Positions 1 to 64,000 of a stretch of DNA of 64,000 nt are shown piece after piece. The stretch lies in NCBI GenBank assembly GCA_951406725.2, contig OX597828.1, positions 75,764,001-75,828,000 on the forward strand, read 5' to 3'. The translations under genes were made by a program, and so were the position numbers. Origin of the DNA: Octopus vulgaris (Eukaryota). The notes under the pieces were generated by a model that was given only the letters and a program-made list of their open reading frames with translations, was not told the origin of the DNA and searched no databases. Position 1 is the first letter of the stretch. Every line of letters starts with the position of its first letter.

Positions 1-1026
1 CTTTTTTCTCCATTCTAAGTTTACCTCTGTCTTTGTCTGTTCGTCCTTTTCTTTGCACGTTCTCTCTTCTTTTTCTTCTGTTATCTTGCTTTTGATTTTT
101 TTCTTTTTTAGAACTTTCGGTGGTGATTCCACCCTTGTTCTCTTCCTATCTTCTGTTCTTTCCTCCTCTGCACTTGCACGTTCTTCTTCCACATCCTCAA
201 TTAGCTGCTCCTCCGTTTGCGCCTCAACTGCTTTCATTTCCTCCTGCATTTCTCCCTCCTCCACACACGTATCTTTCCACTCCTTCGTTACAGCCTCCGG
301 TGCTATCGTTTTCTCCAGCGGGCACACATCCTTCATGTGGCCTCTTAATTTGCAATTATAACAGACTTGGGGTCTTCCCTCTACCACGACTCTAAGCCGT
401 GTCTCATCATGGAAGACCAACTCCTCCGGGATGTTGTATAGGTCTGGCACGGCTATATGTGCCAGAACCTGTACCGCATATCCCCACCACTTAACTTCTG
501 TTGACTTTTCCACCTTCACCGCCTCCACACTTGCCTTGCAGTTGAAAACTACTGCCGCTAATATCCTCTCCATGTTAAGTTCGGGCGAAATCCTAATAAT
601 TCTTATTCTGACTGCCCTCTTTCCGCAGTAACTAGGTAATAAAGTCCAACTTTCCGATTTCAGAATTTTTGTCGCATTCTTTCTTGCTTCATTTTCATTT
701 TTAAAGCGTACCACCACTGTGGCATATTTCCTTCCTCTGTTGAAAAAGGTAGGTTCACCCTCAATTCCTTGCAGACATTTCTCTATTTCTTCCATCTCTG
801 CTACTTCTATTTTTCTTGACGCCACACAACATGTCCTGTATGTTATCATACGTTTCTCCGTGTTGTTTTCTTTTTCGGACGGTGTGACTCTCACGCAGTC
901 ACCCTCCCTCTTCAAACTGTCGAAATATTTTTCTAAAGTCTTCTTCTCGACTACCACTTCTTCCATTTCTAGTCGACTCGCAACCAGGCCTCTGCCTGCT
1001 GCTCTCGCATACGTCTGGTCTTGCAT
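1..1026 (-). CDS. ORF1p/gag-like nucleic-acid-binding protein (RRM-like region + CCHC zinc knuckle), intact, runs off the left window edge
   Basis: Manual translation from ATG at 1026 is stop-free to position 1 (342 codons): MQDQTYARAAGRG...FFNRGRKYATVVVRF...LLPSYCGKRAVRIRI...RLRVVVEGRPQVCYNCKLRGHMKDVCP...RKRTRVESPPK. CX2CX4HX4C knuckle is intact. Probably absent from the ORF track because no stop lies in the window. Collinear with the protein at 36590-37863. Confidence 0.85.
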   Translation of the reverse strand, partial: MQDQTYARAAGRGLVASRLEMEEVVVEKKTLEKYFDSLKREGDCVRVTPSEKENNTEKRMITYRTCCVASRKIEVAEMEEIEKCLQGIEGEPTFFNRGRKYATVVVRFKNENEARKNATKILKSESWTLLPSYCGKRAVRIRIIRISPELNMERILAAVVFNCKASVEAVKVEKSTEVKWWGYAVQVLAHIAVPDLYNIPEELVFHDETRLRVVVEGRPQVCYNCKLRGHMKDVCPLEKTIAPEAVTKEWKDTCVEEGEMQEEMKAVEAQTEEQLIEDVEEERASAEEERTEDRKRTRVESPPKVLKKKKIKSKITEEKEERTCKEKDEQTKTEVNLEWRKK

Positions 1027-1143
1027 TTTCAAAATCTCCAAATAAAATTCACCACGTCCTCCAGCAACGAACTCGAACTCACAACCTCTTCACAATGACG
1101 CACTCAAAACAAACACACGAGAATAACGACTCCAAAAAAAATA
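1..1143 (-). mobile_element. ORF1-encoding non-LTR element, copy 1 (5' part; 3' end outside window)
   Basis: GT-rich 5' leader (1143-1027) and an ORF homologous to copy 2. The 5' junction directly follows CAGCTGACC (1152-1144, minus) of a hammerhead-bearing repeat. Confidence 0.7.
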
Positions 1144-17820: not shown

Positions 17821-18208
17821 CATTAAGTATCTATTTGAAGCTTGGCTGTATGTAATGTCTGTTTTCTTGAACAGCCGCTTCTACTGAGTACTGCTGTTGG
17901 TTTATTTCTTATACATAAAGGACTATAGCTTCAACTGCGTACTGCTTTTTGATTCACCGTAAGGCTTGTTGTTATTATTATTACTGTTTAACTATTGTTA
18001 TCACGTTTGTTGGTTCCTCGTAAGGGAAACGTTGTTGTGTTGCATTTGTTAAATAATTGTAAACTGTAACCCTTCCCCTTTGGGAGAAGGAACTTTGATT
18101 ATTGTTTAAAAATTGAATTGTGTCCCTATTTGGGGAAATTGACAATATTTTCACAGTTTATACGGAAGCATTTTTGTTAGAATGTCTTCGATAGAAGAAA
18201 GTCCAAAA

Positions 18209-18650
18209 ATGAATTTCGCTGTAGCCGTCGGCGGGCACAAACTCATTAAAATTAAAATGGAAGAAATACAAACCTATTTCGGATTGATCACCGACAAAGA
18301 CGGTGAATCTAGGATACAATGTAAAGAGAAAAAAAAAAAGATTTGAACACCTGGAGGAAAGTACCATCGAAAACTGTTTTGGTGCGACTATGAAAGATAT
18401 CTACCCAGAGGCGGTAAATTCGCCACAATAGAAGCAAGGTTCGAGTCAACGGAGCGTGTAAGGGAGTACTCGACTCGTTTCTTGCAAAGTGGAAATATTT
18501 TATTTTTACCTTTATATCTGGGACGTAAGACGTCCCGGATAAAAATTAAAAATGTCCCCCCCAGAAGTAGAGGTAGGCTGGATTATCTATACAGAGGGAG
18601 GACAAGATACAATTGATCGAAATTGCAAGAGACGGGCCTACAATTCCAGT
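18209..18650 (+). pseudogene. Divergent relic of the ORF1p-like family (copy 3)
   Basis: RGGKFATIEARFESTERVREYSTRFLQSGNILFLPLYLGRKTSRIKIKNVPP aligns by eye with RGRKYATVDVRFENEDEAKRNATTVLRSEKWVL.PSYCGRRAVRIRISKIPP. Frameshifted and truncated. Confidence 0.7.
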
Positions 18651-18859: not shown

Positions 18860-19500
18860 TTGTAAGCATTCGTTCTGAATGGCCAACATTTCAGAAATAG
18901 TTTCTTTTCAGTTGATTTTAGGTTGAGACTAGCGTCTCTGCACTTAACCTACTGAAATCACCTTGTGCCATTTCATCTCTAACTGGATAGATGGGCTGAA
19001 CAAACTTCAGTTACAGACACACAGTTACTAATCGGCGTCGTCTTGCTTCTCAGGTACCGAGCTGCAAGACAACCAACCCAACATAGTTCTAAGATGTATT
19101 TGCAATTAAGAACCTCGTATCCTATCAATATGTTGCTGTCAATATGTTGCTAACTTCTTACAATCCTAAAGTATCCGATCGTATCGACAGTCTTTCTGCG
19201 ACTCAGTTCAAGTGGGATGTTCCTTAACCCCTCTGCTTTCCACAACAGTAGCCCAACGATGAAAATGTATAGTAGCAATGAAAGAGAACAAGCTTCGGGG
19301 AGACGCGAATATCTTGATTGAGAAGCTTTCAATAGTTGACCGTTTAATCTGATCAATGTGCAAATTATGTTGCCCATAGCACCGTTTAGGCGGACGCTTC
19401 GTGTGATTAGCGAGCAAATGCTACTGTACATAGAAGCAACGATCCAGCATCTGAGAATGAGATGGAAAGCCGCCACTAATTAATTTGGCTAACTCGACTA
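18860..19500 (-). pseudogene. Decayed L1/Tx1-like reverse transcriptase fragment
   Basis: WIVASMYSSICS...IRLNGQLLKA...EACSLSLLLYIF resembles the RQGCPLSPLLY region of L1-clade RT. Confidence 0.55.
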
Positions 19501-20649
19501 AAATCTTTAAACTGATCTAAATTGATCAGATAGTCACCAAAGACAAATCGATTACTCACGCTCTCTACGTCGTATCACGTGAATTGTTGTTTGTAGTAAA
19601 GAAATCTGTCGGGTATTGTACACGTTATGCGCCCTTGACCACGCTACTGATGACAAACGAAATAGTTTCACAAACAGAAAACCACGTTTTTTTATGAACC
19701 GAAGTGAAAACGAAGGACAGTTTAGATGAAAAAAGAAAATAATGAATAAGACTCGAAACAAAATAATTATATTAAAAACTTTAAAGCCTTTACTCATTCA
19801 TTCTTTTAAATACTCCATTCCTTGTTGTTTGTGGTATTTGTATTGTTGTCATTCTATTCTTTTGTAAATTTGCTATTTCTTTCTCTTTTGAAGCCGCTGA
19901 TAACTGTTAATTATTTGTGTTTGTGGTATTTCTATTTTGTGTGTGCTGATCGTTGTTTTACTGGCTTTGTCATTGTTGTTGTTGTTGTTGTTGTTTTCTT
20001 GATGTTCTTGTTGCTGTTGTTGCCCCGAAATCGCCATTTATTATATATTATTTGTTTCATTTGTGGCCACTAAAATCATCAAACAGGAAGTAAAAAAGAG
20101 TTAATTATTAAGTGCCAGTAACTTCCAACTCGCCAGTTCTTGCTGCGACTTAAAATGGCTAAGCTCCACTGAGCAGATGCCAAAAACATTAAGGTTTGGG
20201 AAGAAATAAAATAATGTAAATATTTGAAAAGAGAAATAACAACATCAAAAGCAGTGAAAGAAGGGAGGGTGGTTGGACGGAACAGAAAGGGTAAAAATTA
20301 TTAAATGAAATATTACATGCAATCTTTGTAAAGAGAGAGTGCAGGCGACATGAAGCATATACATTTCGCATTGCTGTATCTTAAAACTGAATATTCAATG
20401 CTTGCCATCTTTGTTCCCCTGAAGAGAGAGAAAATAGAAAAAAAAATTCACACATATCTATTTAGTCAACAATAGTCTGGCCTGTTATAAAGTAGGCTAT
20501 TCACTAAAGACGTGCAATGTCGCCAATGGGCCTCGGTAGTTTGTAAAAGGTTGATGATCAGCATTTATTCAATGTGTTCTCACATAATTTAGTCCTTAAA
20601 TTTGAGTAGAAGTTCAAATCGGTTAGATGGACTCTCCCTTCAACCATTT

Positions 20650-21780
20650 CGACTTCATCTGCTATGATATCTCTTTTGTCAATGCTCAAACAATAAAAGT
20701 TTTCAATATTGATTGCAAAAGGAGCGCAGCGGAACGATGTTCAGGATGAGTCGGAATCCATCTTGTATACGACAGGAATCGCCTGATATACATTCCAAAG
20801 TTAGCAGTCCACAAATACTGAAAAAAGCCAAATAAAAACGTTTAAGGGAGGGTGTCGTCTTTTTCAATCTTTGATATGAGCACTACCGTGTCTGTGATGC
20901 TTATATTGCAACTAGAATTGCCCTTGTTGACTGGATATTTTAAATAATAACAGAACTGAAAGTCCCCCCGAGAACACCAGATCTATATATGCTATACGCC
21001 ATCCAGAGTACCCTAAACTGTATGTTTGTCCATACCATCCCCCAAACCATATTAAAATTAAAAGATTTGCATCCTGCCCAATGTATTTCCTAAAGAGATG
21101 GAGGAACACATGTGATGGAAGAAGACACGCGAACACAACGCTCCTATAACCGAGCATTCATTTATGGTCAACGATTAAACTATCACTGCAGTCCAGTTGT
21201 TACAGACATGAGATGTCCTGGGACGAGTATTCCACATGCGCCGACCTCTTTCATGGAAGTCCACAGATTTGATGGCTATATGTGTTTGATCGCCAATTGA
21301 CACCTAGAATGGAAAGAGATCTCAGTGCAAGATGCTAATAACAAATGGCCACTCTGACAAAAACCTGTCCCTTCAAGAAATTTTAAAAGAGCAACCTACC
21401 CAGTCTGATCAGACAATCCACTATGTCAAGGCTGCATCGACAGGTAGTTACACACCGCCGAAACACTGCTGTCCTACATTTCCACTATAACATTCTTTTA
21501 GCACATTTCTGAGTCAGAGTCATATTTTCCCCAAAAGTCACCATTAGTCCTTCGTTGCCATCTACATGTAAGTTTTGACTGAAGTAAACTCCGAGTGATT
21601 CAACCTCACCATAAAAAAAATTAAAATACCTTGAGGTGACACCGTTATGTATGAAGACAAACACCACAGAATTGAAATCCAGTTGCAATGGATTCCTCAC
21701 CTCACAGAGATTCTTCACAAACCCACCCCAATACGCGATACGCTCAAGACCCTCTTGTTATGGCTTCTACTAAACATCCT
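20650..21780 (-). pseudogene. Decayed Tx1-like ORF2 C-terminal fragment
   Basis: GEVESLGVYFSQNLHVDGN (cf. V.LLGVWF...NW) and an LLF.F.W-like segment; many stops and frameshifts. Confidence 0.45.
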
Positions 21781-23136
21781 AGACTTCAGTAGACAAGACT
21801 TGTGAGTGAAGTCAGGTTGATGGCAATGTTTATCAATGCTAGAATAAAAGCTCTGTCTGCTCCCAGTGGTATGTCGCACGTGATTTGGAATCCCTCCATA
21901 ATGTCATTTCACTATTATATAATGCAATACAATCATTTACGTTGTTTTCGCTGTTAATTAGATATAATTTTAGCACAAGACTCTTGTGTTCTATGAATGG
22001 AGACGATTCAGTTGTGTTTGGAACAGGATCGTATTTAAGGAATCATAGTGACTTCTTGCCCTCCGTCCTTCCAGTCTAAAAGCGCCTGCAAAATGAGGAC
22101 TTCGGTGGTGCCATTTCTCTTATGATTAATCCACTGAAAAGTAGAGAATGGATTCCTTTCGGAAGTGAAAACAACCCAGTTAAGTTCTCTCACCTGAAAT
22201 GGGTACTATCATGTCTACACTGGATCAGGTGATATATTTTTAAACAGATGAGACTAAAAATATTGCGAAATCCGTGAAGCTTTTCTATGTGGTGGTTAGA
22301 CGTATCAGAAACAACAGCTAAATCTATCTTAAATTACCGTTCTACTGCCTTAAAGGAGGACAATGTGGTCCTAGATACATTATCTGGAAAAGAAACAACA
22401 AAAACGGACCACTTATGATGAGAGTGTTGATCATATCAGAATAGACCAGACGTTACGCAACATAACGACGATGACAGATGATGAAGATTACAACCGTCGT
22501 ATGAATCACCGAAGGAGGAAACTACGTGGTCGGTCGAAAGAGTAGAAATAGTAGCCAAACTTCTTTAATCATACACTACAGTTTTAAGAAAGGAAGTGTA
22601 TATTAGAAAATGTAAACTTAGTTACATAAAAGGAGATGGGACGCTTAGAGCTGGAGCATCTCTGATCAGAGATTTACTGGACAAAAGCTGACCTGGAACT
22701 AAACTAAAAACGAGCAATGGTGTAAATCTCCTTTAAGCCATTTTATTACATGCGAAGATTCCATTGTCAGCGCCTCGGTTTGGTTTTTGTTTCTGTTGTG
22801 TTTTCTTTTTGTTATAAAAGATTCTTTGATCAATTTTATATCATTCAATGATAATGGCGGCCACTTACATTGACTGACATTTTTGACACTTGAAAAGGAT
22901 GATGGAGGTGTTGTTGATGTAATTGTAGCAGCAGCAGTAGTAGTCGATTGGGCTGTTGCTAGTTGTTGTTGTTGTTGTTACTGTGGTGAAGATGGCAATG
23001 GCAATGATATTGGTGGTTATGTTTGATCCTTTAACCTATGTTTCGTGTAGACACGACTTTGGTCTCCTGACATTTTGAACTAAAGATTTGGTGTTGGTGG
23101 GAATGAGTACCATAGTGAGGAGAAGGAATGGTGAAC

Positions 23137-32369: not shown

Positions 32370-34072
32370 CCACCCCCAAATCAAAAATCCTAGAGTTAGA
32401 CGTACTGGAAACAAGCGCAGAGAAAATCTAAGCATATGAAAACCCATGCTAAAACTGAGGAGATATTCTTACTGATAAATGGCAAGAAAATGCCCAAAAA
32501 GAGTTAATAATACCGATGTTCACAAAGCCCTTACGAATCAATGGTTAGTGTTTTCTTTCTTAAAATCAGAGGCAGAAGGGTTTACCATAGCAGCCCCAAA
32601 TAAATGCTTACCTCCGAGAAGCTACCATGCCAACATCTTAAAGAACGGCAGTAGCCCAACATATCGTGTATGTAAACAACAAAATGAAACCATTGATCAT
32701 GTCTCCATGTGCAGTCGTTTTGCGTCTACAGAACACTTCAACAGGCATGATGGAGCAGTACAGTATATTCACTGGGTAATTTGCAGAGACTTGAACCTAC
32801 CTCATGGGTAGGGAACACAAACCACCGCCAGTGCTTGAAAATGATCACATCTCACTCATTTGGAACTTCATCTTTCAAACTGACAGAAAGATCGATGCGA
32901 ATAGGCCAGACATTATATTGAAGGACTTCAATAAAAATCATGCCTTCTCATTAATATGACTGTCCCAATCGACATAAATGTATCTGTCAAAACCTACCAA
33001 AAACTGAGCAAGTATAAAGGTCTTGGAATAGAAATTGGCAAAATGTGGAACCTCAAGACTAAAGCAATACCTGTTGTTATAGGTCATAGGTGCCCGAGAA
33101 ATGATAGCAAAAGAGGATGATTGCTACTTAGCTCAGGTATCAAAAAATAGAAGAAACTTTTGAAAATAGTGCTCATAGGAACTGCCCATACCCTTCGTAA
33201 AATGCTGTCTATATAATCGCACAAATATTTTCATCCGTAAAAAGTGTCAAAATACATAGCAAAAGTACATAACAGCAAACACCTTTTACTGTCGTCTTAA
33301 CATCAGACTATCATCTTATAATCAAATTACTTTTAAAACAAATCTCTAATTTACTTATGTTTTGACAGACATTTTCTAGAACAATAATAAAACTAAGTAT
33401 TGGGTTGTCCGGAAAGTTCATGCCTATTTATAGGAGCTTACCTTTCGACTTATTTTAGAACATCGTTGAGTCTATAAGTTAGGATTTGACTACACCTCCA
33501 TTTAGAGCACAGTTTAAGCTATCTGTTCGTGGAAGAAGGTTTATGTTCCTATAACCTGTGTTAATTCTGTAACCCTTTAAATTGGAAGATAAGAAATTTC
33601 ATTTTCGGCATTTGATGCTTTGGGAACCAGACATAAATTGCGGCTCGGCTGGGATGTGTTACCTCACCCTCCATACTCACCAGGTATTGCTCCGTCGGAT
33701 TTACACTTATTCAGGTCTCTGCAGAATAGTCTTAATGGTAAAAATTTCAATTCCTTGGATGACATAAAAAGATACCTTGATGAATTCTTTGCCATGAAAC
33801 CTCCTCAATTGTGGGAAGAGGGTATTTTCAAGTTAAAGGAAAGATGGAGACGCATTGTGCAACAAAATGGTTCATATCTGGTTGATTAAAAATGTAATGG
33901 CAAGTATTTATTGACCTTTTTCTTTCCTTTAAAAATCGGCACGAACTTTCCGGACAACCCAATATATGGCACCCTAGTCATAACACCAACGTGAACTTCT
34001 AACTTGTCTCTTGAAGTCTCTGGGTGAGATTTGGAGTCAACTTGTAAAAAAGCCAACTAAAAGCCAATAATG

Positions 34073-34152: not shown

Positions 34153-36476
34153 CCTTTCTAATTTAGACACAAGGCTTGAAATTATAGAAGCTTTGCTTGA
34201 CATCGAAAGGACGACAGGCAAAATCGACCTCGGCAGAATTTGAACTCGGAACAGAATGCTTAGTATTTTACCCGACTTACTAACGATTCTACGAGCTCTG
34301 TTGTTTTAATAGTAATAATTTGTGACTTCAGGGTCCTTCCTGCATCTAATCCTCTATAGAGTGTTATATGATTTGTCTATGCAAGATTTTCTCTTTGGCG
34401 ATACTTGTCCAAACAATGGCCAAGGAACGAACCAACACAAGGAATCTTCCTCTACGAGAAATAGCAGCTTAATTCCACGCAAAATTTACAACTTAACTCC
34501 TAAAAAGTGGAATGCAGATTTTATAGCATAGTTCTGGACAGGTATCGTGTTTGAACATTATAAAAGGTCAGTGACTGAGTCCCTTTTCTTTATAGTCGCA
34601 GTCGGGGAGAGAAAACTATGACGAAAATAACAATAATAATGACGAGGACGACTGAGCAATAGAACCGTAACAAAATTTTCAGAGGAAGTATGGTTTCTTG
34701 CTGAGAGTAATTTTCATATTAGAACATCTAAATATGCCAATTAAGTATGTTAGTAATGTATCTCGGCTTTTGACAGAGCCAACAAGGAAGTTATAGTTTC
34801 TGAAGATCGCTTTGGATAGAAACGGCAGAAAGTTTTGTATTAAAGACGTGATCATTATGAACCATCGGCAGCTACATATTAACGATCATCGCAAGCACGC
34901 AATATTTACACACACTCCAAATACGAATGCCGTTTAGCGGATGTGATATTCAGATTACTTTGAAAGACAAACGCATATGTTAGACTATTAATGCTTCGAT
35001 CATATATATGTGCATGGGTCATATAACACACACATTTATATATATATATAACTGTGTGAGTGTGTGTATGGGGTCGCGTGTGTATATATCGTACAGAAAA
35101 TTTCCGAGGGTGCTCTGTGTGTGTGTGTATGTGTTGGTGTGTGTGTTGTAAAGAAACTGTATGTCGTTGGCGGTAAACCATAAAAGTTAGTAACAAGCTT
35201 TTAGTGATTATTCGACGATAATCAGAAGAAACTAATACAGACAAGTATTGAAACATATTCGTTAAAAGAAACGTCATTAATATATGGCCTGCCTTCTGAA
35301 TAGATAACTGTGTGTGTGTGTGTGTGTTTGGGAGAGGAAGATAGAGCGATAGGGAGAGAGATAGGGAGAGAGAGAGGTATTAGCAGCAGTGTCCGTGATT
35401 CAAAAAGCTCTATTTCTCCCTCGGTGTATCAACTTCACACTAAATAATTATAGTGTGGAAATAAGCAGCGGAATGATAGCGATGGATTTAACGAGTTTCT
35501 TTATTGCAAACCACCCGTAATAAGTTGAAAGTATCAAGGACATGATTACGCTCACACGTGCCCACACATGCGCGCGCACGCACACTGACGAGGCTACTCA
35601 AAATTTGAGACCCGCATACACATGCGCACAAACATCTATTTACATTGCATATGCACACACACACAGGCACCAACATATACACATACGGGGCTAACAATTG
35701 TGCTTACATATACACACACAGACCGCAGAGATACGCACATACATATACAAACACACAGATATAGACGTACATATACAGGCAAATAAATGTATTTACATAT
35801 GCACACACGAGCTATATAGTTACACAGGTACATATATACACACATGTACACAGATGCACACAAACATACACACGCCTTAGCACACATATGAACACACACA
35901 CACACAAGAAATATCTTAGATCTGCATTGTCAAACATTTCACGTCTTGATTCATTAACGTTAAGACTTCAGAAAAGTGTTCATCAAACGCCTAAAATACG
36001 GAGCTGTGCCATGTGTCTCAATGTTATGATATGGAACAAAAAAGAAGCATTGATTTTTGCGCTGGTGGAGGCATATTTTGAAGATACGATGTAAATGAAA
36101 TCAAAAACCAAAACACCCCACCAAACCCGGGGGTAGCTGTGTGGTAGGAAGTTTGCTCCCCGAACATGAGGCTTCAGGTTCAGTCCCGTGCTAACGTTTC
36201 TGCCAACTCGCAGCCCTATATATATATATATGGATGTTACTGTAGCTTGTAGCCCCAGGAGAACATCTTCTCCAGCTACAGTAACATCCACTCTTAGTGG
36301 TTAGCCATATTGAGATGGCAAATATACTTCAGATTGTCGTGCAGTTACTGTCCATACCTCGTTCAGAGATTCATTATTGCTTGTATACACTTTTTCAAGA
36401 TCAGTGACGAAAAGTCACTGGTAAAAGGATATAAATATTTGCATTGGGACCCTCCCATCGAAAACCGGTGATTGTC

Positions 36477-38116
36477 ACGCGGACGCGTTTGTGTCGGTTT
36501 TTCGGATTTGCGGTTGTGAGTTGAATTTTGTTGATTATTGTTGTTGAGAACTGTTGCGTCGTGCTGAATTGTTGAATTGTTTGTTGGGTATGCAAGCCCA
36601 AACTTATGCGGGAGCAGCAGGCAAAAGCCTGGCTGCGAACAAATTATTGTTAAAAGAAATAATTATAGAGAAGGAAAATCTGAGGAAATACTACGACAGC
36701 TTCAAGAAGGAAGGAGACTGTCTGAGGGTTACACCACCTGAAGACGAAGTGAAAAAAGCGGAGAAAAAACCCAAAACATACAGAACATGGAATGTGGTCT
36801 CAAAAAGAATAGAAGTAGCAGAAGTGGAAGAGATTGAAAAATGTCTACAAGAAATAAAAGGAAGAACTACCTTCTTCAATAGAGGTAGAAAATACGCTAC
36901 GGTAGACGTTCGCTTCGAAAATGAAGATGAAGCGAAAAGGAACGCAACGACAGTGTTGAGATCGGAAAAATGGGTTTTACTCCTAGTTATTGTGGAAGAA
37001 GAGCGGTGAGGATACGAATAAGCAAAATCCCACCGGAACTTGATACCGAAAGATTAGTAGCTGCAATAATCTACAACTGCAAGGAGAACGTGGACATACT
37101 TAAGGTGGAAAAGTCGAATAAAATAAACTGGTGGGGTTATGCGGTGGAAGCCTTAATCCACATAACCATGCCAGATTTGTATAACATCCCGGAGGAGTTG
37201 GTGTTCCCCGACGAGACACGACTGAGAGTCGTGGTGGAGGGGAGACCTCCAGTGTATTATAAATGTAAGAGAAGAGGGCACATGGAAGATGTGTGTCCTG
37301 AAGGAGAAATACAAGAGAGGAAGATGACACTGGAGGAAGCAATAAGAGCTTTGACAGAGGATTTAGGAGATAATATGGAAAGTGACGACGAGTTAGTGAA
37401 TGAGAAAGAAGAGGAAAGAACAGAAGAAAGAGAGGATAGAAAGCGAACACGGGTGGAATCACCACCCAAAGACCAAAAAAAGAAAAACACTAAAAAGAAG
37501 TATGCTGACGAGACAGAGGATCGAACGCACGAAGGGAGAGATACAGCAACTAAGGTGAGTGAAGGTTCAAGGTGGGAGGAATGGGGAAAATGGTCAGCAA
37601 AAGTGGAAGAATGTCTGAAAACATGCAAGGAAGGAGGAAGAGCCAAAGGAAAGAATCTCAGAGCTGTAATATTGTACACAAAATATAAAGAAATTGAGAA
37701 AAAATTAGCAATAACTAAAAATCTAACGAGAGTGAAATTGAACCCGCGAATATACGATAACCAATTTAAGGCTGCAATAGTGGAAAAAGAGACGGTAAAT
37801 AAATTTAAAAATTTATTTTCAGATACAGCTGTAACCATAGTGCATTACGTTCGATATGTATGACAGTTTGCCCGGAGTTATAGAGCAAGATGAATTACTC
37901 GTTTACATTACGGACGAACACCCCAGATAGTATAACTGTAATATAAATGAAACTGCGAGCTTTGGGAGGCTCGTAAGCCATTTCATTTAATTTATTGTTA
38001 ATAATTCATTTCATTTAATATCATCCTTTTCATTTTTATAATATGTGCCCCATATCCTGTATTGTATTGTTATGTCCCCTCTCCATTCAGGCCATTGTGC
38101 CTATAATAAAGAGAAA
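36477..38116 (+). mobile_element. Complete 1640-bp ORF1-only non-LTR element (copy 2)
   Basis: 10-bp TSD GGTGATTGTC at 36467-36476 and 38117-38126. GT-rich 5' leader, single ORF, ~250-nt 3' UTR ending AATAAAGAGAAA. No room for an RT/EN ORF. Confidence 0.85.
36590..37863 (+). pseudogene. ORF1p/gag-like protein, ~424 aa when one frameshift (~36980) is repaired
   Basis: ORFs 36554-37009 and 36970-37863 join into a protein collinear with copy 1. 1-nt deletion near TTACTCCTAGT; knuckle reads YYKCKRRGHMEDVC (first Cys replaced by Tyr). Confidence 0.85.
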
Positions 38117-38126
38117 GGTGATTGTC

Positions 38127-38169
38127 GTGCGCTGGTGACGGGTCAATACCCAGAAACTGCAGTCCGTGC
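38127..38169 (+). ncRNA. Minimal type I hammerhead ribozyme (one core substitution)
   Basis: GTGCG-CTGGTGA-cGGGT caat ACCCa-GAA-AC TGCA GT-C-CGTGC. Palindromic stem III (ACTGCAGT), GUC triplet; core CUGGUGA instead of CUGAUGA. Confidence 0.72.
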
Positions 38170-39374
38170 GTATCACTTAGGTTGACGAGGGAAGGATGAC
38201 CTCTCTTTGCAAATACCGATATGGCACAGAAAGTGTGTCAATAGCCAGTTGGAGAAGATGTTCTCCCTGAGGCTACAAGCTACAGTAACATTCACCCTTT
38301 GTGGTTAGCCATATTGAGATGGCAAATATACTTCACATTGTCGTGCAGTTACTGTTCAGAGATTCATTATTGTATATATATATATGCGTATGTGTGTGTG
38401 TATATCTTTCTCTCCATTCATCAAGTGACACGCTCTTCATGCATAGAAGACTACACAAATAATTTTGCTCCTTTATCAAAGTTTAATCAGCAATCAGTAT
38501 TATTAACACAGTTTTCAATGCCAATGCCTGGCAGCAATACGCTGTATATTAGATCAATTATTGTTAGTTGGACTCTTTTAGACAGCAATTTGAATTAAAG
38601 TACCTGAAGAGATGCTGTGATGACGCATTCTGTTACAGTCTCTGACACAGCTATGAATGCAAAGTGCGGCACACTGGACCTTCTCAATAGTACGCCAACG
38701 AAAAATTACCGCGAAAAAAATGTTTATTTAGTAGTGCGGCCGTCCGCCTGTTGACGATCCACATCTCAGGCGGTTCGCTTCAGTTAATGAAATGATTGGT
38801 TCTTTATCTCCAGCAAAGGAGTAAGCCAGCGGAATTTGAACGCAGAACGCAAAAAAAAAGTGCTAGAAAGCTATCCGGCGTTCTAACAGTCATGCAACTA
38901 GCATGCTGGCGTGTGTGTGTGAGCCTGCGTGTCTACAAATGAATATGCAGATTTAGTGACTATGGTCAATATATAGCTTTTACTCGAGTAAGCCATTGTT
39001 GAATCATTTTTCTGGATACAGATAAAACTTTATGTATGGGTATAAAGTAATAACGGGAAATTCATTACAAAAAGCACAGCCGAATTTACAAAACGAGTGT
39101 GTGCGATGTAATTGTGTGCGAGTAGATGGAAATATATAGCTAAATATGCATACATATGTATATATACTATATAAAACTATATATACATAGGTGGCTGAGT
39201 GTTGGCATATATGTATGCATGTGTGAGTATGGATACATTCGAGTGTATTGCGAGAGAGATATATAGAGGGAGATGTACGGTAAATAAAGAGACCAACAGA
39301 CTGGTTTACTTTATGTTCTACTTTTCAAAGAGACGTCCAAACACACACATATATGGAAATTTCTATATGGCCAG

Positions 39375-60816: not shown

Positions 60817-63179
60817 TCTCTCGGACATAACTTGATGGATCTAGGAAACGAGGACCGAAAGAATTGAGGAGCTACTAGGCTTCCAGTATCTATCACCTGG
60901 GCCATTATCTTAACTTCCAGTATCCTACACTACGCGCCCCCACAGTATTTTGCCTAAACATCAGCTAATAGTTTAAGACTTGTCGGCTATCATCCTAGTT
61001 TACCTAATGTGCCAACGGTTGCTCAGGTGTAGCATTGTCACATGTCAAATGCACATAATGCAAGCTTTAAATGAGACCCGAATGCTTGGTGGTAACTAGT
61101 GGCAGAATTGGGAACACCCAAGGAAAATTACTGCCACGCATTGACGCAACTTTTACAGTCGATATAATTATTGACAGAGTCCATAGAAGGTGGTGCTCAG
61201 CTTCACTGAAGTTTACTCAGACGAGAAAGAAAATAAACGATTAAATAAATACGTGTATGCGTATATTAAAGGTAGATTTGACTGTGTTAGTGGTGTGTAT
61301 GAATGTAGTAATGGTATATGTATATGTAAGTATTAATAGTGTGTATGTGTAAAGGTGGTTATGTGTGTGTGTGTGTGTGTGTAACAGTTGATGCTTGTTG
61401 ATGTCCTTTCGCTCTCACGACATTTCCATCACAGCTGACGCGAAACAAATTTTATGCCGGGAGTCGATTGGAAGACTGGCTACGATCCGTTGGACGTCAG
61501 CGCATGAAGCAAAAAAAGAAGAACAGATCGGATTTGGATGCTGTTTGGCTTAGAGTTGTGCTAAGCCAGAGCTTTGGATCAGATAATATATTGCCACATT
61601 CTTTCGATTTCCGGATATTTCAATTTCACATCTTATACGGCTAAGGAGAAATGCATAAACATTATATAATCTCGCCCGTTACTTCCGCTACAATATCGTT
61701 GCTTGGTGACTACATACAACACAAACAAAATACAAAAAAATAATAAATATATAACTAAATCAATACTGCCTTTGAATTGTGTGAACCATTGTCTTTCCTT
61801 TACAAATACAATTTTCCATTATGCTTCGTTTACAAAAGCCAGGGATCATGGTATCAGTTTTACAGTTGAGTGGAAGACTGATAAATGAAAGTTTCGTAAC
61901 CTAAATCAATATCCACTTATTGATTTCAGGAAGTCATCGTTTGTAATCCTTCAGAGAACTCGTAATACCTTGATAGGAAGTTTCTATTATACCTTGTCAC
62001 ATCTACGGTTTCGATCTAAACGACATCAAAACGGAACAGAAGCATTAATTGAGTTTAATGAAGGTGCAGATTAAAGCAGCTTTTGAATCTTGCTGGCAGA
62101 TTAACTTTTAATTTCCTCATGATAAAACGATGTTAAATGTAACAGTGGGATCAGTTCCGCTAACGAGTCTCTCTATAAATACTGACATTTTAACATATGT
62201 TCATCAATTTTGTTATCCCCATTTAACCGTAGAAGCTATCAAAGTAGAATGCCTCGAAGAACATTGAACGAATACGAAATTATAATAATAGTTTATTACT
62301 TTAGTTGAAAAATCCCCAAATATTGCGCAGAAAACGTCAAAAATTCGTATCTCTCTTCGCTCTCTTTTTTTCTGTCGCCAAAGAATTATAATCGTGAGTG
62401 AACTGAATTGGTTTGAGGCATGAATCACAGTAAGTTACAAGGATAATTTAGATGAGATATTACGAAATAGGTAAAAAGATTATTATAATAGTGAAGTAAT
62501 ACATTGATATGAGATTAACAATACGTTGTGAAAAGGAATTGTGTTTGTGTAGAGTTCTTATCTTTGCCAAAGAATAAAACTAATTTACAAAGTTGAAGTA
62601 AATATGTTTCAAACAGAAATAGAAACGGTGTAATACAATGAAACTATAAAGTTATCGTTATTGCTGTTTAATATCCTGCATGCTGAATAGGTCCAGACAT
62701 TATTTTCTGATATTATCTCCAAACTAGCCATTCTTTTTCTTTAAATAGGCTTTGAAGGAGATGTTGCTGCTATTTCTGGTTGCTGCTGCATATTGAACGA
62801 GTTAAAAGCTTCTTAACTATATTCCTTTAAACGCAAATGGTATCAACAAATTAGTAGAAAATAAGCCTTCAATCTGTTTAGCACTATTTAACAGCAGCTA
62901 CTAATAAACAGGTACTAATAAGCTTCTCATAGATACCAGAAAGTGAAGAATATTTTAGAGACAAGCTGCTCTAAACGTGGGAAGAGCGGTCCTTGAGCGG
63001 CAGAAACTGTGTAAAATGCATTGTTATATAGTTGCACGTAATGTTAATAAATACAGCGGGTAGTGAAAGATTTCGAACAGCGATTGAGGAGTGAGTTATA
63101 TCCATCGTGACCGAAGAAATTAATATCCAGTGTTATTCTGAGGAATATAGTCGGTTCAGACGAAGGTTTGAATGCGGCT

Positions 63180-64000
63180 GAGGGATTGAAACGAAAAATA
63201 AAACATTTATTCCCAGATGTTTCCTCGGATGAACAGAGCTGCTGCACGAAAACAAAGACATAAATTGTAGTAAAACAAAGTGCAACACTTTTATTGAAGC
63301 CAAAACGTAATGTACTGTTCGCATCGATAGAACAGGTAAAGAAGGAACTTGAAAGACTTGAAAGCCTAGGAATAATCGAGAAGACGGACCACTCAGATTG
63401 GGCAGCACTTAAGTAAAAGAGAAAAATAAGATACGAGTTTGTGGAGATTTTTTTCAACCGGTTTAAACGATTGTTTAGTCCCACATAACTATCCATTGCC
63501 GAATGCTCACACTTATTAGCTGTTGATACACAATGTAGCTTATTTACATTTAAGTGGTGTCCCTTCGGGGTAAAGATGGCTCCTTCCATATTTCAAGAAG
63601 TAGTGACTGCAATGCTGTCGGATTGTACTTTAGACGATGTCCTAATAAAAAAGCGAATCACACAAACATATAGAACACGTAGAAAGGATATTCGAAAAGA
63701 TCAGCGAATATGATTTTAAGCTATGTGAAAAAAATATGCGAGTTCCTTTTGAAAAAAATTAAATACTTGGGCCAGATAATAAATAAAATCGGACGGAAAC
63801 CGGATCCATCCAGGGCAACTGTGATAAAAACAATATGTTATTATGCTATGAGCATTCTTGGGGTTAGTAAATTACTACCAAATTCATATTCCCAATATAC
63901 ACAATGTAAAGGGCCCTGCTGAATGATTCGTTAAGGAAAAATACAAAATGGTACTAGACTGATAAATGCCAGGAGGCGTTTGACGAATTAAAAACAAACG
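63180..64000 (+). pseudogene. Decayed Ty3/gypsy pol (reverse transcriptase)
   Basis: KPKRNVLFASIEQVKKELERLESLGIIEKTDHSDWAA; PFGVKMAPSIFQEVV; LDDVLI; CEFLLKKIKYLGQII; FLGLVNYY; KCQEAFDELK. Deletions and stops present; runs off the window. Confidence 0.92.

Follow-up and report, generated by a model that had tools for sequence, protein, structure and literature searches.

Non-autonomous LINEs that encode an ORF1 protein are known in mammals, flies and mosquitoes, and the available sections of the literature name HeT-A (Jockey), HAL1 (L1) and Ag-Sponge (CR1) as examples (PMC5786205). HAL1 is a derivative of L1 with ORF1 only, as described in the accessible parts of PMC5753468 and PMC13756887. 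ORF1 proteins of type I have been linked to Tx1-type elements in non-mammalian animals, albeit not exclusively (PMC5203782, sections at hand), and Tx1 elements are described as target-specific in the consulted portion of PMC3747384. In Octopus vulgaris, the segment 36477-38116 of the 64-kb stretch analysed here (the window; all coordinates are counted from its first letter) is probably a dead full-length copy of a non-autonomous non-LTR retrotransposon, from a family in octopods that encodes ORF1 only. The original prediction had called it HAL1-like, which holds for its layout: like HAL1, the element consists of a leader, ORF1 only, a 3' UTR and an A-rich end, and it is flanked by a target-site duplication. 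The likeness does not extend to the protein, which is modelled as a type I ORF1p with two RRMs and a CCHC knuckle, unlike the type II protein of HAL1 (coiled coil-RRM-CTD, Transposase_22); moreover, the octopus element has no poly(A) tail and is of separate origin. The element is a functional analogue of HAL1 rather than a HAL1 proper. With the ORF1-encoding non-autonomous LINEs in general it shares a single ORF1-type protein, the lack of RT, LINE-like ends and a multi-copy state, and it differs from HeT-A, HAL1 and Ag-Sponge in its mollusc host and in its parent clade, which is probably Tx1/L1. In common with the Tx1-group LINEs, as far as covered in the excerpts of PMC5203782 and PMC3747384, it has a type I ORF1 and a possible target preference, in contrast to them it lacks ORF2 and hence the clade-defining RT.

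The proposal that this is an independent invertebrate equivalent of HAL1, presented as a novelty, was too strong, as HeT-A and Ag-Sponge had already been published (PMC5786205, available sections). A cephalopod ORF1-only element was not found in our search of the literature, nor by term searches of two octopus papers, but the family may be deposited in Repbase, in Dfam or in the repeat library of O. vulgaris. Elements of this type are a test of the cis action of ORF1p and of RT sharing in trans. With a type I ORF1p in a mollusc, the present family represents a separate origin, which probably lies in a LINE group so far missing from the published list.

Evidence on the family comes from the window itself and from contigs of four public sequencing runs (X1, X2, X6 and X13; four of at least 24 listed), which were aligned to positions 36000-38600 at 80% likeness; X1, X2 and X6 are DNA-type or unlabelled runs, and X13 is taken as RNA by guess only. 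The element is 1640 nt long and carries on both sides an exact 10/10 duplication, GGTGATTGTC (left copy 36467-36476, right copy 38117-38126, both on the forward strand), with no further occurrence on either strand of the 64-kb window beyond these two. In contigs of X1, X2 and X6 the two flanks are joined with one copy of GGTGATTGTC between them; the joins lead from 36450-36452 to 38117 and, in one X2 contig, from 36476 to 38150, and the intervening letters are host-like. These contigs are paralogous empty copies of the repeat into which the element has inserted, rather than an orthologous empty allele. Because the empty host copies carry the 10 bp only once, the target-site duplication is genuine, as had been proposed. 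The predicted 5' leader was also found, as a G/T-rich segment (87/113) of 113 nt at 36477-36589, upstream of the ATG at 36590, and the alignment of one X1 contig begins at 36478, preceded by 69 unlike letters. A second copy in the window has a leader of 117 nt, which aligns with the 113-nt leader no better than shuffled sequences do. At the other end, AATAAA (38105-38110) and a 12-nt A-rich stretch were correctly recognized at the outset, whereas the 3' UTR spans approximately 186 nt (37931-38116) instead of the 253 nt proposed. A true poly(A) tail is absent, and the element ends 6 nt past AATAAA. One contig of X13 aligned over 37938-38116 continues for another 35 letters without alignment. 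In agreement with the initial reading, no RT is encoded in the 1640 nt, and no endonuclease either.

The ORF1-type gene (36590-37930, forward strand), which comprises about 445 codons in its family version, is broken in this copy. ORF finding returned two frames that overlap, one of 139 aa (36590-37009) and one of 297 aa (36970-37863); the single ORF of about 424 aa described originally results only when a -1 shift near 36980 is ignored and thus does not exist as such. This frameshift (36980-36981) is private to the copy, as seen from the frame overlap and from contigs of other copies, which have one extra base at 36980/36981 in all four runs; the second window copy is likewise open across the site. 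Four nucleotides at 37855 are absent from most of the contig depth (301 of 453 in X1, 1351 of 1623 in X2), and because this 4-nt duplication is missing from most copies, the ORF of the family ends at about 37930 and is followed by a UTR of about 186 nt. The frame after the duplication, whose stop codon is at 37928-37930, scores 38 and 36 against the C-terminal ends of the homologues P0053 and P0057 compared with 9-22 for the other frames, while the C-terminal end of a third homologue was uninformative on the frame (18 versus 14 and 9). The duplication interrupts a C-terminal domain of about 95 aa (37636-37930) that is conserved in close homologues, matches no Pfam family and shows weak similarity to distant subgroups (hhalign probability 0.1-12%). 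Alignment located the CCHC zinc knuckle at 37255-37296, where the first Cys is changed to Tyr at 37256, a position at which nearly all contig depth differs from this copy. The copy at 36477-38116 is full length, but the frameshift, the duplicated 4 nt and the missing knuckle Cys mark it as dead.

For the fold of the protein we relied on the second window copy, for which AlphaFold2 with a 54-row alignment gave a model with a pLDDT of 90.0 and a pTM of 0.74 (a model from the single sequence, with a pLDDT of 38.9, was set aside). The best Foldseek matches were tandem-RRM proteins (E 2e-4, TM ~0.3). In VIA-align, residues 48-136 matched the La RRM (Z 8.8, rmsd 2.6, 82 aligned residues) and residues 133-219 the RNA-binding domain of TAP (Z 7.0, rmsd 3.3, 79 aligned); residues 133-220 matched ferredoxin-like folds at Z 7-8, values that are middling for VIA-align. 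No LINE ORF1 structure was among the Foldseek or VIA-align matches, which excludes nothing. The check for RRM and knuckle domains suggested at the start thus points to two RRM folds, with approximate limits of 36730-37250 when mapped from the second copy's model, and to a CCHC knuckle by alignment; on this model the protein is a type I ORF1p. By language-model features, its look-alikes in the Atlas included arthropod CCHC clusters (0.93) and a cluster with the ZCCHC3 RBD1/RBD2/CCHC domains (0.91). By these features the protein has the domain order of ZCCHC3-type proteins (RBD1-RBD2-CCHC; PF23057, PF23058) at no direct Pfam match to these two families; unlike ZCCHC3, which is a single host gene, the element is multi-copy and mobile.

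A search with the first 240 residues of the second copy found 325 homologous clusters at E<=1e-3. Twenty homologues were looked up, and all 14 that could be named are octopod (Octopus bimaculoides, O. vulgaris, O. sinensis and Argonauta). Among the best 150 homologues, 13 contain zf-CCHC at E<=1e-3 (Pfam), and the families listed include no RT or endonuclease for any of the 150; Transposase_22 was matched in neither 54 nor 150 relatives, word-index protein searches returned no match, and the 54-row alignment gave no usable pattern. In a 30-row tree the two window copies are sisters (support 100/98) and stand beside P0001 and P0004 of O. bimaculoides. Between them, dN/dS is about 0.11 over 234 codons, with a bootstrap upper limit of 0.19; pN is 0.18 and pS is 0.69, so that synonymous sites are near saturation, and the differences fall on the three codon positions as 49/42/109. 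By this measure, ORF1 evolved under purifying selection, which may predate the loss of ORF2: because the 3' end of the second copy lies beyond the window, the signal could stem from ORF2-bearing ancestors. Four of the homologues (P0016, P0075, P0100 and P0102) are long gene models in which ORF1 pieces are fused to unrelated sequence (in three models, WD40, LDL-receptor and astacin domains); they are probably annotation chimeras, with exonisation as the alternative. Many octopus gene models annotated as 'uncharacterized CCHC protein' would be explained as transposon products. Another related cluster includes four Logan contigs (P0055, P0167-P0169), all 1849-1930 nt long, which hints weakly at a further ORF1-only family of unit length.

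The second copy (1-1143, reverse strand) is 72% identical to the first over 721 nt, and its ORF is open for 342 codons up to the edge of the window. A third, more distant relative of ORF1 is represented by a fragment at 18395-18565 on the forward strand (profile match, iE 2e-18; 44% over 57 aa to P0005). The decayed remains of this relative extend over 18160-18620 (+) with P0005 and P0015 as nearest homologues, and the hairpin motif described below is absent upstream. In the three DNA-type runs the median depth over 18 element bins is 60x, 69x and 47x that of the deepest bin in the unique flanks, and even the lowest element bin reaches 24x, 36x and 16x. Contig depth is a rough guide and gives no copy number, and it suggests tens of copies, perhaps more. 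The depth of the two UTR bins compares with the ORF median as 2057 and 1375 versus 1044 in X1, 5904 and 3084 versus 3352 in X2, and 773 and 236 versus 351 in X6. At single positions in X1 there is no drop past the stop codon (453 at 37855, 1088 at 37943, 1153 at 37993). Per-place depth dips at 38015-38025, to 99-226 in X1, 427-481 in X2 and 23 in X6, or about 3-12 flank equivalents; this stretch is AT-rich, and copies with ORF2 could branch off there. Two X13 contigs that differ from the window cover the region after the ORF: record 15 crosses the stop region (37778-37942), and record 16 spans the UTR from 37938 to its exact end at 38116. A deletion variant present in X1 and X2 joins 38027 to 38062. 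Of the 24 loose contig ends listed, out of 1355, four lie inside the element and none in the UTR. Depth and bridging contigs together indicate that the layout from ORF1 to the tail is multi-copy, and the second window copy supports the existence of a family.

The autonomous partner was originally sought in decayed ORF2 fragments at 18.9-21.8 kb of the window. This segment (18900-21800, reverse strand) is strongly decayed, and what we take to be Tx1-like LINE RT motifs can be made out by eye. Nevertheless, neither 45 stop-free pieces nor three read-through frames of it matched an RT or endonuclease family in Pfam, and its best piece gave no RT or endonuclease in searches against PDB, plasmid and Atlas collections, so that these searches did not confirm the proposed ORF2 fragments. 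Nor does the segment fare better as the partner itself: the UTR aligns with it at a score of 31, which is reached by 305 of 1000 shuffles, and no Pfam match was obtained. The third ORF1 fragment, at 18.4-18.6 kb, lies on the opposite strand to this remnant. A higher UTR score of 67 near 11.4 kb (maximum of 40 shuffles, 62) was traced to the low complexity of a microsatellite tail and discarded. Comparison of the 5' and 3' parts of the element with the window revealed no match to an autonomous LINE, related loci were found in neither metagenome contigs nor viral contigs, and a weak alignment-based search, which covered proteins of 1508-4305 aa, did not detect the partner. A partner from the Tx1/L1 group is plausible because L1-Tx1 families are plentiful in O. 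vulgaris, with 13 recently active families and 80 in all according to the available part of PMC13282606.

The element is inserted in a repeat with a very high copy number, whose left part (36231-36476) contains an inverted arm, a partial unit, a hairpin (36402-36420) and a TATA-like box (36430-36437), and whose right part (38117-38380) contains a hammerhead-like motif (core 38132-38164) and a second partial unit, all on the forward strand. The unit is arranged in partial tandem with a period of 354 nt. In X1, the summed contig depth of this repeat is 4.8e4-4.1e5 (4.8e4-2.2e5 in the bins of its left part, 36174-36434) compared with 16-18 in the unique flanks. The hammerhead pattern occurs once in the window (0.01 per shuffle), and its stems fold as expected; a search of Rfam returned nothing at the gathering score and five chance-level matches (E 3-9). 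A tandem unit, an inverted arm and a hammerhead are the marks of Penelope pLTRs and retrozymes in the available sections of PMC8557442, PMC7229834 and bioRxiv 10.64898/2026.07.22.740005. As judged by pattern and predicted fold, the host repeat is of the Penelope pLTR or non-LTR retrozyme type. It resembles both in its partial tandem unit with a length within 150-450 bp, its inverted 5'-side arm, its hammerhead-like core of type I, in which stem III has 2 bp, and its very high depth; in contrast to both it has no Rfam match and no adjacent PLE ORF, and its ribozyme is putative.

The second copy borders on a different repeat (1144-1696), which has inverted arms that are 82% alike around a centre at about 1465, a hairpin at 1195-1213 and, in one arm only, a degenerate hammerhead-like motif (about 1486-1526) that was missed by the hammerhead scan as it departs from the consensus. 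A T run at 1134-1143, at the putative 5' end of this copy, might represent leader sequence, non-templated additions or a tail in inverted orientation. The two hosts share the hairpin motif CAGTGA-N7-TCACTG, which occurs twice in the window and once in 100 shuffles in total, and which lies 56 and 51 nt upstream of the 5' junctions of the two copies. The hairpins are part of a 51-nt gapless match whose score is attained by 2 of 2000 shuffles and by 6 of 2541 window tiles, one of which is the second copy's own flank. The junction reads ACC^GGTG at both copies, that of the second being inferred from the other arm. Both close copies (2/2) are thus located behind the same hairpin, a pattern noticed after the fact and with n=2; the motif is absent from the distant third fragment, and in two contigs the flanks are unlike the first host. 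The first insertion is much younger than either ORF, so that the positions of the two copies look like independent insertions at equivalent places. We consider it doubtful, though worth stating, that these loci belong to an old octopod radiation of ORF1-only elements derived from Tx1-type LINEs, which would prefer ACC^GGTG sites in Penelope-type repeats, located just 5' of the hammerhead and 35-45 nt downstream of a TATA-like box, and would take RT from one element and a promoter and a safe landing site from another. If this were true, the host ribozyme would be able to cut read-through RNA 48 nt beyond the element end, and if the target preference holds, a non-autonomous element would be homing on the ribozyme-bearing repeats of another transposon class.

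Taken together, the target-site duplication and the absence of RT make mobilization in trans by the ORF2p of a partner the mechanism that we infer for the family. A master copy would be transcribed by Pol II, and ORF1p would coat its own RNA, which might explain why the ORF stays under selection. The RNP would then borrow the endonuclease and RT of an autonomous LINE, for which the L1/Tx1 group is the most likely source, and the borrowed ORF2p would nick the target and start reverse transcription from the A-rich 3' end, giving rise to the 10-bp duplication. The copy studied here would have inserted immediately 5' of the hammerhead motif in a Penelope-type repeat of high copy number and decayed afterwards.

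In a different reading, the copies described above represent a minor and short-lived subfamily that arose by internal deletion from an ordinary autonomous Tx1-type LINE; the majority of copies would then carry ORF2 in the interval from about 38010 to 38040, and the parent would have spread the few deleted ones. The dip at 38015-38025 is in line with this, both element ends would still be deep under such a model, and deletion is known to give bipartite products (PMC5786205, available sections). However, the dip lies in a low-complexity stretch, in which a bridging contig needed 9 gaps, and none of the X6 loose ends listed (each of 1-2 contigs) falls at 37900-38100. The absence of RT and endonuclease from the best 150 homologous gene models and, as a weak hint, the uniform length of the four Logan contigs of a related cluster (1.85-1.93 kb) also speak against it, and we regard such a subfamily as unlikely. 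A unique internal deletion, confined to one LINE copy, which the original prediction had named as its refutation, would fit a dead copy with private lesions, yet it deserves hardly any credence because contigs of other copies, whose sequences deviate from that of the window, extend across the end of the ORF and the entire UTR including its weakest point, and because all 18 element bins have at least 16x the flank depth in three runs.

Two further readings were considered. If the copies were processed pseudogenes, produced by retrocopying of a ZCCHC3-type gene domesticated in the octopod host, the Atlas cluster with ZCCHC3 RNA-binding domains (0.91), the purifying selection and the AATAAA close to the end would be expected. 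Three diverged copies within one 64-kb window, by contrast, would not, nor would 325 clusters at 50% identity, many of them truncated or fused to unrelated host domains. mRNA is normally cleaved 10-30 nt downstream of AATAAA, whereas this element ends after 6 nt and without poly(A), and we consider a host-gene origin quite improbable. It is more improbable still that the surrounding Penelope-type repeat carries the ORF as cargo, which would move with it by the Penelope machinery, despite the pLTR-like direct repeats that flank the ORF, the location of both window copies in such repeats and the ability of PLEs to move host genes in trans (PMC8557442, available sections). The clean 10-bp duplication and the empty host copies argue against cargo, the hosts of the two copies differ in sequence, an X1 contig has the same 5' end next to an unrelated flank, and no other contig backs the host-element junction at 36484-36486. 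Insertion of an ORF1-only retrotransposon into a pre-existing repeat remains the preferred reading.

Several other features of the window were recorded. A further palindromic repeat, in which both strands carry CTGATGA...GAAA motifs, is located at 2810-2925. At 32479-32811 (+) there is an ORF of 110 aa without a Pfam match, which by eye we take to resemble the C-terminal part of a Dong/R4-type LINE protein, and the decayed frames at 62500-64000 (+) resemble, again by eye, a gypsy-type pol. A SINE-like repeat family is present at 36130-36187 and at 11.6-11.9, 24.3-25.1, 27.6-28.0 and 59.5-60.4 kb, and one SINE-like fragment abuts the first host repeat.
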